DNA of 64,000 bases from Escherichia phage kvi. The stretch lies in the sequence record MN850615.1; one strand, given 5' to 3'. Of the stretch, positions 3,804 to 55,520 are shown piece by piece. Every line of letters starts with the position of its first letter. Within the stretch, counting starts at the first letter, position 1. The position numbers were made by a program, and so were the translations under genes. Under the pieces are notes generated by a model, which made no database searches, had not been told where the DNA came from, and was given only the letters and a program-made list of their open reading frames with translations.

Positions 3804-4061
3804 TTAATTAAAATCTTCTTTGTCCATCTCTGCGTAGATTACATCCCACGCCCATAAATCAATAAACGCATTATATGTCACGGTGCAATCGTTGTCAATC
3901 ACTTCTTTCGCATATTTCTTGATGTTTTCGTAGGAAACTTGCGGGTCAATTTTGTGTTTACGAAGGTGCGCATATTCATATCTCAGACATTTCATAAACA
4001 GGTCCATCGATTTCTTTTCTCGATGACACTTGGCGATCATAAAATCAAAACTTCGACTCAT
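3804..4061 (-). CDS. hypothetical protein (85 aa; rIIA.1 position)
   Basis: minus-strand ORF immediately upstream of rIIA. Confidence 0.4.
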   Translation of the reverse strand: MSRSFDFMIAKCHREKKSMDLFMKCLRYEYAHLRKHKIDPQVSYENIKKYAKEVIDNDCTVTYNAFIDLWAWDVIYAEMDKEDFN

Positions 4062-4072
4062 TTTTCTACTCC

Positions 4073-4267
4073 TTATACATTTTCAATTACCCATTGCAGA
4101 TGGGCTTCTGCGTCAACCAGTTCAGCGCGGCTTTTCTCTAAGCACTTGCTGTATTCTTTACGTTCCCACTCGGCAATTTCGTTTTTCAGGACTTCTTCAT
4201 AGTAAGCAATTACGCCTTTCAGGTCTGAAACTTTACGGCTTGCCAATTCGATGTAATGGTTACGCAT
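4073..4267 (-). CDS. hypothetical protein (64 aa)
   Basis: minus-strand ORF, tight spacing to neighbours. Confidence 0.35.
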   Translation of the reverse strand: MRNHYIELASRKVSDLKGVIAYYEEVLKNEIAEWERKEYSKCLEKSRAELVDAEAHLQWVIENV

Positions 4268-4454
4268 TTTGATTCTCCTTTGTTACTAGATAACGAATTT
4301 GGTCTTGCATTGCGATCAGTTCCCAGCGTGCTACTTTCATCATGGAAACTGACTCTTTGAACATAATATTAGCTTTTTCCTTCTCCCCTGTCAAGTAGAT
4401 TTCTGCAATTTTTTCACAAAATTTTTGAGTTTCTTCATTCTTAAACGGTTTCAT
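4260..4454 (-). CDS. hypothetical protein (64 aa)
   Basis: ATG at 4454 with AAAAGG RBS downstream of a PeSL-type promoter; the track ORF begins at an upstream TTG. Confidence 0.4.
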   Translation of the reverse strand: MKPFKNEETQKFCEKIAEIYLTGEKEKANIMFKESVSMMKVARWELIAMQDQIRYLVTKENQNA

Positions 4455-4483
4455 ATAAGTCAACCTTTTGTTTTCGATGGGGA

Positions 4484-4512
4484 CATTATGATATATCCCC
4501 GATCCAGTGTCA
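4484..4512 (-). promoter_or_regulatory. sigma70-type early promoter (PeSL-like)
   Basis: minus strand TTGACA (4512-4507), 17-nt spacer, CATAAT (4489-4484); GGGGA/TCCCC inverted repeat spans the -10. Confidence 0.5.
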
Positions 4513-4520
4513 ACAGATTT

Positions 4521-4820
4521 TTAATCTTTTTTCAATGCATCCATTACTCGCTCTGCGATCAGTTCTCGTAAGCACTGATAACCATGATATTTGATGGCAA
4601 TGTCACGCAGATCATTAACCAGTTCCCGTACTTCATGGTCTTTCAGATCGTCTCTGTATTTCGATTTAACCGTGTCTTTAGGTGGATTGTGGATAACCTG
4701 AAAACCTTGTTCTGCAATCACTGCGGCTTCTCGCTGGCGTTCATGTTGTACTGTATTTTTGATCAGGTCTACTTCCATGAACTTTGTCATACTCATCATC
4801 ATGTTATTCTTTTTGCTCAT
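4521..4820 (-). CDS. hypothetical protein (99 aa)
   Basis: ATG at 4820 with GAGGA RBS; the track ORF extends further upstream to 4856. Confidence 0.45.
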   Translation of the reverse strand: MSKKNNMMMSMTKFMEVDLIKNTVQHERQREAAVIAEQGFQVIHNPPKDTVKSKYRDDLKDHEVRELVNDLRDIAIKYHGYQCLRELIAERVMDALKKD

Positions 4821-7370: not shown

Positions 7371-7540
7371 GACACGCGCACATTTTTATCGTAATACCCG
7401 CCATTAATCCCGCGCGGGGCAGTTAATCCCTGTTTACATTCTTTACCGCATTCAGGGCATTCTGCCTTTTCACGCTCGGAAATTTTGCGGATTTTCTGAA
7501 ATTGACCGTGTTCTTCACAAGAATAATCGTATAATGGCAT
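7367..7540 (-). CDS. zinc-ribbon protein, FmdB-like (57 aa)
   Basis: MPLYDYSCEEHGQF…CPECGK…; ATG at 7540 with AGGGGA RBS; the track ORF is over-extended upstream. Confidence 0.55.
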   Translation of the reverse strand: MPLYDYSCEEHGQFQKIRKISEREKAECPECGKECKQGLTAPRGINGGYYDKNVRVS

Positions 7541-7541
7541 A

Positions 7542-8210
7542 TTATCCCCTTTGTTTCTTAACTGAATTTGGATCTGGATTTTCTGGTAGGTCTTCCAGAC
7601 CCATAGCATAACGTTGTGCATAGATTAGCATAAGAATATCGCGAGCGCAATCATGAATTGCATCATGTGCGATAAAACCATCTAGCGTACCCATTGGTAA
7701 CGGACACTCACACATCCCGCGATGCATCAATGTACGCTCAATGGCGGTGCGAACATCTCGGATGTTCCAGAATCGCACAGGTTCAAGATTGAACGTCTCT
7801 CGTGTATTGTGTGCATCGCGGATCATATCAACTAGTAACGGAATATCAAACGCATTACCGCGTGACCACAATACGGATTTAACCGGATCTACCCCTACGG
7901 CTTCACAGAATGCGTTAAAACGCGCTAAACCTTCTTTAGTTGATACTTCCGTACCATTTGTGATTAATTGCTTTCTCATGCCTTCTGAGGCGGTATTCTT
8001 CCACCATTCAACCACACCATGATCAAACACCCTTACACCTTTCTGGGAAGGAATATCAAATTTTACCAGAAAGGAATTGTCAACCAGTTCTTTAAATGTA
8101 GGTGGGTTGTGCGGATCTTCTTTAAATCCGATTGCCGCCATATTGATAACCGCCCCATCAGGCGGATAACCTAAACTTTCAAAGTCAATCATTAAATCCA
8201 CTGGAAGCAT
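7542..8210 (-). CDS. dexA: exonuclease A, DEDD/DnaQ-like 3'-5' exonuclease
   Basis: Exo I motif LMIDFESLG near the N-terminus; ATG at 8210 with GGAGGA RBS; T4-syntenic between 39 and dda. Confidence 0.7.
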   Translation of the reverse strand: MLPVDLMIDFESLGYPPDGAVINMAAIGFKEDPHNPPTFKELVDNSFLVKFDIPSQKGVRVFDHGVVEWWKNTASEGMRKQLITNGTEVSTKEGLARFNAFCEAVGVDPVKSVLWSRGNAFDIPLLVDMIRDAHNTRETFNLEPVRFWNIRDVRTAIERTLMHRGMCECPLPMGTLDGFIAHDAIHDCARDILMLIYAQRYAMGLEDLPENPDPNSVKKQRG

Positions 8211-8211
8211 T

Positions 8212-8454
8212 TTAAATATCCTCCGCGATATGCCGGAACAACTCCAGATCGTTTTTATCCAGAATGAAACCGCTACAATCAATAATCCCGTTACCGTAAT
8301 TATCGGTTAACAGTCGTTCCGTTGCCATGTATGCGCGTACTTTGTTGTTAAAATTCATTACATGTTGTGCATAGTCACAATGAATCTTTTGACGGTTCCA
8401 CGCGACAATTGATTGTAGATGTATTACATTAGCCACATTATTAATAACAACCAT
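8212..8454 (-). CDS. hypothetical protein (80 aa)
   Basis: start MVVINN… at 8454, coupled to the upstream small ORF through the repeated AGCGAGGGTTTTGATATGG junction. Confidence 0.4.
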   Translation of the reverse strand: MVVINNVANVIHLQSIVAWNRQKIHCDYAQHVMNFNNKVRAYMATERLLTDNYGNGIIDCSGFILDKNDLELFRHIAEDI

Positions 8455-28838: not shown

Positions 28839-28851
28839 TCAATTTTTAGAG

Positions 28852-28880
28852 AGTATAACGGGGATTTCTCCCCGCGTCAA
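28852..28880 (-). promoter_or_regulatory. sigma70-type promoter (PeSL-like, weaker match)
   Basis: TTGACG (28880-28875), 17-nt spacer, TATACT (28857-28852); GGGGA…TCCCC inverted repeat. Confidence 0.35.
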
Positions 28881-36257: not shown

Positions 36258-36299
36258 ATTTGATTCTCCTGTAAAGTTGTATCTCGTCTTGATGAATAT

Positions 36300-36328
36300 A
36301 GTATAGGGGATCGCGAGATCCCCGTCAA
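36300..36328 (-). promoter_or_regulatory. sigma70-type promoter (PeSL-like)
   Basis: TTGACG (36328-36323), 17-nt spacer, TATACT (36305-36300); GGGGGATC…GATCCCC palindrome. Confidence 0.4.
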
Positions 36329-45999: not shown

Positions 46000-46028
46000 A
46001 GTATAGGGGATCACCGATCCCCTGTCAA
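46000..46028 (-). promoter_or_regulatory. sigma70-type promoter (PeSL)
   Basis: TTGACA (46028-46023), 17-nt spacer, TATACT (46005-46000); GGGGATC…GATCCCC palindrome. Confidence 0.45.
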
Positions 46029-48074: not shown

Positions 48075-48103
48075 CATTATACGGGGATTTCTCCCCGTGT
48101 CAA
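48075..48103 (-). promoter_or_regulatory. sigma70-type promoter (PeSL)
   Basis: TTGACA (48103-48098) with AT-rich -10 region (TATAATG) 15-17 nt downstream; GGGGA…TCCCC inverted repeat. Confidence 0.4.
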
Positions 48104-53457: not shown

Positions 53458-53880
53458 TTATTGGTCAACTTTCAAAACAACAGCCGACATTTTACCCGCC
53501 AGTCGTTTTGGATTCTCTATAATCATTCGGCAGCATAGACCGTGATATGGCTTACCGTCTTCAATTAGGTCTACTGTCATCCCGATCCACATGTTACCGT
53601 CAGTAATTTCTAATCGATTAGGTCGGTCTTCCATTTTCAGGAAGTCGAAGATCTCCGGCAAACGAGTTTCTACCTTATTGAATAGTTCCATTGTCTTATG
53701 TTCATCGATATGACGATCGGTTAGACGGTCGATCATATGCGGACTAAAGCGAATGAAAATATACTCACCGTAACCATTATTCAAGCACTTTTCTTTGATT
53801 TGTGCGTTAGTCTTACGCATTTCAGTTTCGAAGAATCTGCGCAGCTTGCTACGGCGAACATGTACGTTAATTGTTTCCAT
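53458..53880 (-). CDS. regB: RegB-like sequence-specific endoribonuclease
   Basis: 140 aa from ATG at 53880 (AAAGGA RBS); resembles T4 RegB in size and motifs (…RRSKLRR…, …RLEITDGNMWIG…) and lies next to tk; recall-based. Confidence 0.5.
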   Translation of the reverse strand: METINVHVRRSKLRRFFETEMRKTNAQIKEKCLNNGYGEYIFIRFSPHMIDRLTDRHIDEHKTMELFNKVETRLPEIFDFLKMEDRPNRLEITDGNMWIGMTVDLIEDGKPYHGLCCRMIIENPKRLAGKMSAVVLKVDQ

Positions 53881-53884
53881 TTTA

Positions 53885-54220
53885 TTATCCTTTCTTAAAC
53901 AAATTGCGAAGCCAGTATACAAACGGGATTTCTTTAAACTTGAATTTCTCTATAGTTAATTCTTTAGTAGCAAGATGAATACCATAAGCATCATGTGTCA
54001 CGATATGCCATTTTCTATAGTCCAAATGTGAACAACCGTCTGGATCTAGGTTAATAAGAGTTTCTCGCTCACTAGGATTATTTTTCCACAATTTTGTAAT
54101 AGGATCGCACATAATTCGACCTAGCGTACCATGAATAATCTCACAACGGTAAAGTTTTCCAGCAGTGAGATAGGCGCACCCGTCATAGTCGGTATAAACA
54201 AACACTTCTTTAACACTCAT
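53885..54220 (-). CDS. small protein (111 aa), tandem paralogue family 3
   Basis: ATG at 54220 (GGAG RBS, conserved leader); shared motif DGCSHLD…W. Confidence 0.4.
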   Translation of the reverse strand: MSVKEVFVYTDYDGCAYLTAGKLYRCEIIHGTLGRIMCDPITKLWKNNPSERETLINLDPDGCSHLDYRKWHIVTHDAYGIHLATKELTIEKFKFKEIPFVYWLRNLFKKG

Positions 54221-54248
54221 TTTAATACTCCTTTGTTTCGATGGGGGT

Positions 54249-54277
54249 ATATTACTACCCCCGTTTTGTTGTGTCAA
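54249..54277 (-). promoter_or_regulatory. sigma70-type promoter (PeSL)
   Basis: TTGACA (54277-54272), 17-nt spacer, TAATAT (54254-54249); GGGGGTA…TACCCCC inverted repeat. Confidence 0.5.
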
Positions 54278-54538
54278 CTACTTTTTCAAGATTTTTTTAA
54301 TTGCGTTCCAAAGACCTTTATTCTCAGGTTGTTTTGGTTCTTCGATTAGTGTCCATGTTCGACCGTCTAAGTGTGCACAATTTTTAAGACAAATAAAAAT
54401 CTGGTGTCCCTTATCATCACGGATATAACCACTATTCGCAAATCTTTCATGTGGTGTATATTCATACAGTGTATTTGGTGTAATATACTTGCGGTTACTA
54501 TAAGGTGTCATCACATACATCATGGTACTAACTCCCAT
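54278..54538 (-). CDS. small protein (86 aa), tandem paralogue family 3
   Basis: shared motif …GYIRDD.G…NCAHLDGRTW…. Confidence 0.4.
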   Translation of the reverse strand: MGVSTMMYVMTPYSNRKYITPNTLYEYTPHERFANSGYIRDDKGHQIFICLKNCAHLDGRTWTLIEEPKQPENKGLWNAIKKILKK

Positions 54539-54714
54539 TTATCACCGCGAAGATGAGAACATCCACCATCAAGAAGTATCGTAATACGATAACCTATATC
54601 ATCTTTGATGTAACCGATTGTCGGTGGATTTTCGTCGTCTCGTGTCGGGGTAAAATCATACATCTTTCCGGGCGTAATATCTTGTCCTTTATTGCTATTG
54701 GTATAAACTTTCAT
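54520..54714 (-). CDS. small protein (64 aa), tandem paralogue family 3
   Basis: shared motif …GYIKDD.G…GGCSHLRGDKW…. Confidence 0.4.
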   Translation of the reverse strand: MKVYTNSNKGQDITPGKMYDFTPTRDDENPPTIGYIKDDIGYRITILLDGGCSHLRGDKWELVP

Positions 54715-54735
54715 TTTCTTAATCTCCTATATTAA

Positions 54736-55434
54736 CTAACCACGGGTATAGTGTTCCAGAACAACTGTCAGATGAATATATTCTAATAGATCTTTCCAAA
54801 AGTCAACATCTGGTTCTTCCGGCATACCGTTTTTCTTTGCCTCTTCACGCGCGAGTTTAACACGCTCGTAGAGATCTTTCAATTCTTCCCGCACATTATC
54901 AAAGGTTCTTTCTCCTAACTTACACGCTAAAATAGAAGAACGTCGCGCGAGCGGGAATTGTAAATCACCTGTCTGATAGATTTCAAGTAGCTGATAACCA
55001 ACACGCAGAGCATGAGAAAGATCTTTCCAGTTACTGAAATACTTTTCAGATTTGGCTACCTGCTTTTTGAGATAGCCAGACAAACCCCACATACCAACAT
55101 GATAGAATTTATCGCGATGTGTTCGGATGTATTCCCATTCTCTGGAGGATTCAACCAACATGTTACTAGGCGCGTGCACCATGTCAATAGCGCCGATATC
55201 GCCTTTACATGCCAGGTTGATAAACCGTTTTAGACTGAACATATTAACGTCAATATCGTCTTTGGTGTTCTTGATACCTTGACCGCTAGTGCTTTGATCA
55301 TAGTGTTCTTTCATCGATCCTAAGATAATTTCTTTCGCAGTCGGAACAAAGATACCACGATAATCTTTATCGGAGTTTTCAGTATCAAGGCCGTATAAGT
55401 GAGATCCGAAAACCATTTTAACCATTGTATGCAT
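54736..55434 (-). CDS. polymerase-beta superfamily nucleotidyltransferase of unknown function
   Basis: 232 aa; N-terminal FGSHLYGLDTENSDKDYRGIF fits the hG[GS]…[DE]h[DE]h nucleotidyltransferase signature. Confidence 0.6.
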   Translation of the reverse strand: MHTMVKMVFGSHLYGLDTENSDKDYRGIFVPTAKEIILGSMKEHYDQSTSGQGIKNTKDDIDVNMFSLKRFINLACKGDIGAIDMVHAPSNMLVESSREWEYIRTHRDKFYHVGMWGLSGYLKKQVAKSEKYFSNWKDLSHALRVGYQLLEIYQTGDLQFPLARRSSILACKLGERTFDNVREELKDLYERVKLAREEAKKNGMPEEPDVDFWKDLLEYIHLTVVLEHYTRG

Positions 55435-55482
55435 AATTAAACCCTCAGTTGATTAAGAGATTGCATCATATCATCATAAAAC

Positions 55483-55510
55483 GAAAAAGCCAACCCTTTT
55501 CGGATTGGCT
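55483..55510 (-). terminator. rho-independent terminator after the GrcA-like gene
   Basis: AGCCAAUCC-GAAAA-GGGUUGGCU hairpin followed by UUUUUCGUUUU on minus strand. Confidence 0.65.
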
Positions 55511-55520
55511 TGATGAAAAA

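Follow-up and report, generated by a model that had tools for sequence, protein, structure and literature searches.

The genome of Escherichia phage kvi (sequence record MN850615.1) carries, at positions 53,885 to 55,434 of the 64,000-nucleotide stretch that was analysed here as a whole (hereafter the window), three consecutive small genes and, upstream of them, a gene for a 232-amino-acid nucleotidyltransferase. Do these genes form a joint module, and might it act in counter-defence or nucleotide signalling, as a first-pass annotation of the locus had suggested? All four open reading frames (ORFs) lie where that annotation had placed them. We assign the nucleotidyltransferase to the RlaP family, as the orthologue of T4 NrdC.11, and trace the three small genes, as diverged copies, to a single uncharacterised protein family that is widespread in phages. 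The adjacency of nrdC.11 and the small genes is confined to the Krischvirus lineage. We favour, at a probability of about 0.6, a composite explanation in which two independent accessory functions, tRNA repair by an RlaP enzyme and binding by non-catalytic SH3-like proteins, are neighbours in one lineage.

The nucleotidyltransferase belongs with NrdC.11 and RlaP

The nucleotidyltransferase gene (54736..55434, minus strand) has GAGG as its ribosome-binding site and encodes a protein that includes the stretch FGSHLYGLDTENSDKDYRGIF. The first-pass annotation could not assign it to a family. In fact, it scores 54.1 bits with Pfam RlaP (PF10127), whose gathering cut-off is 23 (E 2.3e-14, aligned to positions 24-198 of the 249 in the profile), and matches phrog_388 with E 2e-79, and it is 100% identical to NrdC.11 of RB49; the gene is named nrdC.11 in both RB49 and Phi1. 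Orthologues in a sister Krischvirus-like lineage likewise carry the PF10127 label. BLASTP aligns residues 1-222 with T4 NrdC.11 (E 6e-51), leaving a 100-amino-acid gap at an insertion in the T4 protein. In a five-way alignment of the homologues from the window, T4, sister Krischvirus, a Bacillus phage and a Mycobacterium phage, G10, S11, D22 and D24 are invariant and position 62 is acidic throughout (D in four, E in the mycobacteriophage protein). The Pol-beta catalytic signature G-S...D-x-D...D is thus kept, as is the C-terminal helical region of the RlaP family. Taken together, the Pfam, PHROG, BLASTP and alignment results identify a Pol-beta-fold nucleotidyltransferase orthologous to NrdC.11, with the catalytic signature that it shares with PfRlaP, PaRlaP and T4 NrdC.11. 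The insertion in T4 NrdC.11 (7436-8446 of the T4 segment L008) spans about 100 amino acids (T4 residues about 130-240). The Krischvirus, Bacillus-phage and Mycobacterium-phage proteins lack it and have the canonical Pfam length, which makes the T4 protein the outlier.

The two Pseudomonas enzymes PfRlaP and PaRlaP append one or two nucleoside monophosphates to RNA 3'-OH ends, favour nicked-tRNA mimics and Mn2+, and are inactive on DNA or protein (PMC12776372, a preprint of December 2025). They can rescue aminoacylation of a tRNA that misses one anticodon-loop nucleotide, before ligation, and the same work lists T4 NrdC.11 as a member of the family, in which three Asp are conserved (PMC12776372). 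By analogy, the Krischvirus NrdC.11 would be an RNA-tailing enzyme that likely serves RNA repair against host anticodon nucleases, restoring tRNAs trimmed by one nucleotide. The family takes its name from an RNA ligase or repair gene neighbourhood, which is not a strict requirement. In bacterial RtcB-RlaP-RtcA operons RlaP lies beside an RNA ligase; Krischvirus nrdC.11 does not, its neighbours being the GrcA-like vs.6 and the small paralogues. RB49 does encode pseT (polynucleotide kinase/phosphatase) and rnlA (RNA ligase 1), ~75 kb from nrdC.11, so that a T4-type tRNA repair pathway is available for RlaP to feed, and nrdC.11 probably works in trans with these two phage genes.

NrdC.11 would thus serve RNA-repair counter-defence and not nucleotide signalling. 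A CD-NTase or cGAS/DncV-like signalling enzyme was considered and rejected: RlaP was the only Pfam match, and the sole match in a PADLOC scan of the nucleotidyltransferase was a chance-level CARF hit (E 0.031, 10.9 bits).

The small genes are paralogues of one family

The three small genes follow one another on the minus strand. The first, p64 (RB49p097; 54520..54714), encodes 64 amino acids and is the minimal member, comprising the core domain only (phrog_6261, E 1.3e-28; isoelectric point (pI) 5.1). The second, p81 (RB49p096; 54278..54538), adds a C-terminal tail to the core (phrog_15978, E 8.6e-61). The third, p111 (RB49p095; 53885..54220; 111 amino acids from its ATG), is the most diverged paralogue (phrog_6261, E 1.1e-37). 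That they are paralogues had already been noticed, and BLASTP, PHROG and an independent profile hidden Markov model (HMM) now agree on it. The 86-residue form of the middle protein (p86) matches p64 with E 6e-12 (40% identity over 63 amino acids), p111 matches p64 with E 6e-4 to 1e-3, and all three proteins match phrog_6261 and/or phrog_15978 (E 8.6e-61 to 6e-6). The HMM, built from 93 family members that all come from outside Krischvirus, matches exactly three of the 1,024 window ORFs, with E 6e-25 (p81/p86), 2e-21 (p64) and 7e-15 (p111). Neither the rest of the window nor the 48-68 kb region of T4 holds a further paralogue.

Some details of the earlier description needed correction. The middle ORF is where it had been placed, but its true length is probably 81 rather than 86 amino acids, starting from the ATG at 54523, because GGAG lies 8 nt upstream of this codon, the ATG overlaps the p64 stop as ATGA, homologues have 80-81 amino acids and the GEC-3S annotation also gives 81. 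The TTG start of a 130-amino-acid form of p111 would fall within the promoter described below. Of the core motif said to be common to all three proteins, the C-x-H-L...W half is present in each, whereas GYI.DD.G occurs only in p64 and p81; p111 has ...LWKNNPSE... at this place, carries an insertion in the variable loop and has lost the DD.G turn. The C termini also differ. The p64 protein has no tail, p81 has a basic tail of 20 amino acids (...KGLWNAIKKILKK) that looks helical, and p111 has an extension of 38 amino acids ending in ...KFKFKEIPFVYWLRNLFKKG. The pI is 9.3 for p81 and 8.3 for full-length p111, in a family that is mostly acidic (median pI 4.7 across a 100-sequence family alignment).

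Outside Krischvirus, the family is broad. HMMER found 357 clusters at E <= 1e-3 among 1.84 billion representatives, nearly all of them stand-alone proteins of 58-70 amino acids with the pattern MKVKTDY.G..Y[IL]T.GK.YE...I.DD.G..I.L..CAHL.G..WE.VE. Five giant matches (P0021, P0022, P0090, P0137 and P0145; 963-3,500 amino acids) were rejected as spurious, since each consists of 6-16 partial stretches over profile positions ~4-40 and has a repeat-rich look; the true family is thus somewhat smaller, at about 350 clusters, a breadth that sets the three genes apart from true ORFans. Members occur among the small early or accessory ORFs of unrelated phages. Both phrog_6261 and phrog_15978 are annotated as of 'unknown function', and they form one superfamily with a common fold and motif; distant and fused family members also match one or the other.

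Tandem-repeat fusions exist (P0020, P0025 and P0028), some proteins holding two or three barrel copies. Fusion partners match no Pfam family, only PHROGs of unknown function, and so give no functional hint. Four proteins (P0108, P0130, P0133 and P0162) have a common C-terminal domain, TWGEMT.AEKGALLLA..EGK.IE...YRIKPEP, which matches phrog_13152 (unknown function).

Predicted fold and conserved residues of the small proteins

The AlphaFold model of p64, computed from the 100-sequence alignment, has a predicted local distance difference test score (pLDDT) of 95.7 and a predicted template modelling score of 0.80; an earlier run with nine sequences (pLDDT 66) was set aside for the fold search. 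In this model a 3-10 helix precedes the last of five strands, and we predict an SH3-like beta-barrel. Structural comparison with SH3-like domains gave Z <5 at 6-14% sequence identity, so that only the fold class would be common to them. Gp54 of phage Bas11 (PDB 9axb) is likewise an SH3-like phage barrel, with six strands to the five of the p64 model and no sequence homology to it. Foldseek found no match in the PDB below E 0.46, and the structure matches in BFVD were uncharacterised phage proteins throughout.

Sequence searches led to no characterised homologue. Neither the small proteins nor 100 family members had a significant match in Pfam, NCBIfam or PADLOC, a sequence-profile search of the PDB yielded noise (RNA polymerase subunit N as the best match, E 0.07, then dipeptidyl peptidase 4), and a literature search with the RB49 protein and locus identifiers found nothing. 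Matches of p111 to FosA (13-19 bits against cut-offs of 180-305) and 29-column Foldseek matches to glyoxalase I were dismissed as chance hits to a short 'DPDG' beta-turn motif.

Among 100 diverse members Y19 and W60 are invariant, and T14, K17, I36, D39, C52 and H54 are each at least 90% conserved. All three window proteins have the motif Y-[IL]-T-x-G-K-x-Y ... C-[AS]-H-L ... W and the other motif residues, except that p111 differs at I36 and D39; there is no conserved stretch of 7-10 residues anywhere in the family. In the SH3 frame, Y12, T14, G16, K17 and Y19 would map to the RT loop and the start of strand 2, and C52 and H54 to the 3-10 helix, all parts of the face with which SH3 domains bind ligands; the loop of variable length would take the n-Src loop position. 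The small proteins would most likely be stoichiometric, non-catalytic binders of a host or phage protein. Starting from ~60-residue, mostly acidic SH3-like barrels, duplication and divergence of one gene would have given a tandem array whose copies were diversified through the variable loop and the C-terminal tail (none, basic 20-residue and 38-residue).

Position of the locus and absence of a conserved linkage

The 2.2-kb interval has 97-99% DNA identity to 58 Krischvirus genomes (RB49, Phi1, JSE, GEC-3S and others), and by this measure the source DNA comes from Krischvirus, an RB49-like relative of T4. The RB49 annotation gives, on the minus strand, regB, RB49p095, RB49p096, RB49p097, nrdC.11, vs.6, a 41-amino-acid ORF, vs.8 and endolysin. 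The same ORFs are found in the window, with nrdC.11, the three small genes and regB all on the minus strand. The corresponding order in T4 is regB, vs.3, vs.4, vs.5, vs.6, vs.7, vs.8, denV ... e. The gene orders match, and the placement of the locus in the regB-to-lysin interval of T4 was therefore right. The T4 gene vs.4 encodes Acb2, as the first-pass annotation had it and the literature confirms; Acb2 is a cyclic-nucleotide sponge, and vs.3, vs.4 and vs.5 occupy the same map position as the array, as three small early genes between regB and vs.6. At the level of sequence no relation of Vs.3, Vs.4/Acb2 or Vs.5 to the small barrels is detectable, and the candidate was rejected (hhalign probability 0.1-1%; 1.0% with E 0.052 for the 100-sequence family profile against Vs.4).

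We found no RlaP near members of the small-protein family outside Krischvirus in any of 11 contexts (Klebsiella Jedunavirus, Vibrio phage helene, three IMG/VR contigs and six metagenomic phage contigs), searched through Pfam tables of called genes or by tblastn up to about 6 kb on each side. Conversely, 1,620 phage records hold an NrdC.11 homologue, and the array was seen only in the 58 Krischvirus records among them. T4 nrdC.11 lies between nrdC.10 and mobD, in the nrdC-mobD region, and no family member was found around it or in the T4 regB-e region; in Krischvirus the gene has moved to the regB-vs.6 interval. The order RlaP-64-80-100-RegB is kept in the sister lineage, but since this is the same lineage, its conserved order is not independent evidence. 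The proposal of a joint module is thus not supported. Nor is that of a nucleotide-signalling module, given that the enzyme belongs to RlaP and not to the CD-NTases and that the small proteins are unrelated to Acb2.

A counter-defence role of the locus remains plausible. For the nucleotidyltransferase it would act through tRNA repair; for the small proteins the case is one of analogy, from their presumed early expression, their fast evolution and a T4 equivalent that is dispensable. In the laboratory T4 tolerates deletion of both the nrdC.11-mobD.3 and the vs.3-denV region (PMC9825161), as would suit accessory roles that depend on the host.

Promoters and translation signals

Each small gene has its own ribosome-binding site, as had been noted, with GGAG 7-9 nt before the start in all three: the spacing is 9 nt for p64 and 8 nt for p81, and p111 has AGGAG 7 nt upstream of its start. 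The p64 start lies 21 nt past the nrdC.11 stop, and the p81 ATG overlaps the p64 stop as ATGA (-4 nt). The first-pass annotation put two of the genes behind PeSL promoters; the interval contains only one true PeSL, in front of p111 (54243..54277, minus strand), which is also annotated as a promoter in GEC-3S. PeSL elements combine a consensus early promoter with a G-tract/C-tract stem-loop and are repeated in hyperplastic regions (Arbiol et al. 2010, PMC2839356). The copy before p111 has this composition, with the consensus sigma-70 early promoter boxes TTGACA and TAATAT separated by a 17-nt spacer and a GGGGGTA/TACCCCC stem-loop that overlaps the -10 box.

By contrast with p111, p64 and p81 have no promoter of their own. 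A pattern scan located a terminator-like hairpin together with a promoter-like site upstream of nrdC.11 (55465..55511, minus strand), and the GEC-3S annotation has a terminator at the corresponding position. The hairpin, AAGCCAATCC...GGGTTGGCTT followed by a T run, overlaps a pattern match to TTGGCT, a 17-nt spacer and TG-TATGAT. The nrdC.11-p64-p81 transcription unit probably starts at this site, so that transcription of nrdC.11 would continue into p64 and p81, and translation of p81 would be coupled to that of p64. The third small gene, p111, would be read from the PeSL early promoter, and regB is co-transcribed with it.

The GGAG Shine-Dalgarno cores of the three small genes (54724-54727, 54532-54535 and 54228-54231) coincide with the motif cut by RegB. 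GGAG is not the Shine-Dalgarno core of nrdC.11 (GAGG) or of regB itself (AGGA). RegB, encoded immediately downstream, may shut the small genes off early.

Evolution of the array

The interval had been described as variable, and the comparison with the sister lineage bears this out. Amino-acid identity is 87-93% in the flanks (NrdC.11 92%, RegB 91%, Vs.1 93%) and 37-75% in the array, falling from 75% for p64 through 57-64% for p81 to 37-40% for p111. The non-synonymous substitution rate (dN) of the small genes is 3-10 times that of the flanking genes. Their ratio of dN to the synonymous rate (dS) is nevertheless 0.18-0.30, at dS 0.7-2.7, which marks them as real genes under purifying selection.

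In a sliding nucleotide comparison with a sister-lineage contig (L010), identity drops to 0.33-0.57 across the p111 core. This diverged segment is bounded by the PeSL upstream and by the last 60 nt of p111 downstream. The latter (53885-53940) are 95% identical to the contig, and the tail of 18-20 amino acids that they encode, KFKFKEIPFVYWLRNLFK, is identical. Either a recombination event had its junction here, or the 3' end of p111 is a constrained element directly upstream of regB. Such PeSL-bounded divergence agrees with the PeSL-mediated replacement of segments known from RB49 and Phi1 (PMC2839356), the PeSL being both the promoter of p111-regB and the 5' boundary of the hypervariable segment. 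Like the PeSL and ORFan cassettes of RB49-like phages (PMC2839356), the array thus has a PeSL, here directly before p111, ORFan-like genes and a hyperplastic setting. Unlike in those cassettes, two of the three genes lack a PeSL of their own, and the array would have grown by tandem duplication and divergence, not by cassette exchange alone.

One metagenomic scaffold (ERZ16268176; L023 45-296) encodes an 83-amino-acid protein, P0005, that joins the N-terminal half of p64 to the C-terminal half of p81 and is followed by a p111 homologue and regB. It represents either a two-copy array that arose by unequal recombination between paralogues or an assembly collapse.

Alternative explanations

The gene identities that underlie the composite explanation are near certain; the binding mechanism is its more conjectural part. 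Several points weigh against it. RlaP activity is known only from the two Pseudomonas enzymes, in a preprint, and from no phage NrdC.11. The case for a binding face proceeds by topological analogy with SH3 domains, and no annotated homologue supports a target. The basic tails of p81 and p111 make nucleic-acid or membrane contacts possible. Finally, the tight packing of nrdC.11, p64 and p81, kept in the sister lineage, is compatible with a functional link, one that comparative genomics would not detect because all such genomes belong to one lineage. With a link of this kind the small barrels could be specificity, RNA-binding or regulatory subunits of NrdC.11, for example choosing damaged tRNA ends. 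The genes are contiguous, co-oriented and closely spaced (21 nt; ATGA overlap), their order from RlaP to RegB is conserved in the sister lineage, where the flanks are about 90% identical, and small beta-barrels such as Sm, KOW and Tudor are often RNA binders. We nevertheless consider partner subunits unlikely, as RlaP is missing from all 11 non-Krischvirus contexts within the roughly 6 kb covered on each side, the array was seen to accompany NrdC.11 in just 58 of 1,620 records and T4 has no family member around nrdC.11 or regB. A median pI of 4.7 disfavours RNA binding, and small genes that evolve 3-10 times faster than nrdC.11 (92-100% conserved) do not behave like obligate partners.

Could the small proteins instead use D39, C52 and H54 to bind a metal or act as miniature enzymes? 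Conservation of each residue at or above 90% in 100 diverse members would suit such a role, which we judge very unlikely. There is one Cys and one His per domain; C52 is replaced by S in 10% of members and H54 by Y, F, W or R in 9%, in different sequences, so that one or the other is lost in about 20% and D, C and H occur together in only 75%. This independent loss argues against an obligatory Cys-His catalytic or metal site. In addition, p111 lacks the DD.G turn, and the fold matches binding domains rather than enzymes. Also very unlikely, in our view, is a nucleotide-signal module, that is, a sponge or degrader of CBASS, Thoeris or Pycsar signals in the manner of Acb2/Vs.4, or a source of decoy nucleotides. 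The position equivalent to T4 vs.3-vs.5, which includes Acb2, speaks for it, as do early and dispensable genes, which are typical of anti-defence loci. Known signal sponges form oligomeric assemblies, however, and a single small SH3-like barrel gives no hint of one. Furthermore, hhalign probabilities against Vs.3, Vs.4 and Vs.5 do not exceed 1%, and the enzyme, without a meaningful PADLOC match, falls in a family that tails RNA 3' ends (PMC12776372). Least probable of all is ORFan cargo without function, three ORFs that PeSL-mediated recombination would have passively carried along and duplicated. The hyperplastic region at the PeSL, the replacement of the p111 core between the PeSL and the 3' tail, and the possible p64/p81 fusion in one metagenomic scaffold fit this view; dN/dS of 0.18-0.30 over dS 0.7-2.7, the retention of all three genes in 58 isolates and the sister lineage, a motif kept across about 350 clusters and a predicted fold of high confidence contradict it.

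Beyond the composite explanation of two independent accessory functions, a bolder and much less likely one can be entertained. The barrels may be new, widespread phage early effectors that bind and neutralise variable host immunity proteins, or are sensed by them like Gp54 of Bas11, or else they may be unrecognised NrdC.11/RlaP partner subunits. As effectors, the triple array of Krischvirus would be an arms-race expansion that widens the target range; as partners, the barrels would direct the NrdC.11/RlaP RNA-tailing enzyme to particular damaged tRNAs.

These genes had been deposited as hypothetical proteins with the RB49 genome, both PHROGs exist, and the nucleotidyltransferase family has recent biochemistry. 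New here are the union of the two PHROGs in one family of about 350 clusters with a confidently predicted fold, the demonstration of tandem paralogy and of fast, PeSL-bounded evolution, and the negative outcome of the joint-module test. No new mechanism is indicated, a two-part module is unsupported and the overall meaning is modest. The practical gain is a tidier annotation, with the nucleotidyltransferase named NrdC.11/RlaP, an RNA 3'-end tailing enzyme likely in tRNA repair, and three hypothetical proteins of RB49-like therapeutic phages placed in one family. Presumed early expression, fast evolution, duplication and a spread across unrelated phages make this family a sensible choice for screens of anti-defence or host-takeover functions.

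Neighbouring genes and other elements

Downstream of the array and outside it lies regB (53458..53880, minus strand), identified as the endoribonuclease gene by Pfam REGB_T4 (E 2.2e-48) and the RB49 annotation. Upstream, vs.6 (55521-55937, minus strand) encodes a GrcA-like autonomous glycyl-radical cofactor (Pfam Gly_radical). The segment 53000-56200 has no match in Rfam at E <= 0.1. One sister-lineage contig (L011) has an HNH/NUMOD4 homing endonuclease gene (4031-4624) between vs.6 and the RlaP gene, an insertion that neither the window nor two further contigs, L010 and L012, share. The 41-amino-acid ORF (RB49p100; 55948-56073) between vs.6 and vs.8 lies inside a segment of ~115 nt (about 55959-56078) that is missing from L010.

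The window has eight or nine PeSL-like elements, every one of them on the minus strand. Besides the one before p111 they are found at 62110-62138, 60299-60327, 48076-48103, 46000-46028, 36298-36328, 28850-28880 and 4483-4513, with TTGAC[AG] and a G4...C4 stem-loop in the spacer or -10 region. Closest to the element before p111, and nearly identical to it, is the copy at 62110-62138.

The endolysin (56621-57010, minus strand) is, by Pfam, an M15 peptidase rather than a T4-type lysozyme. Immediately upstream of it, on the same strand, there are five or six small, very hydrophobic ORFs of 54-88 amino acids (57039-58040); RB49 lists them as hypothetical, and their products resemble small membrane proteins.

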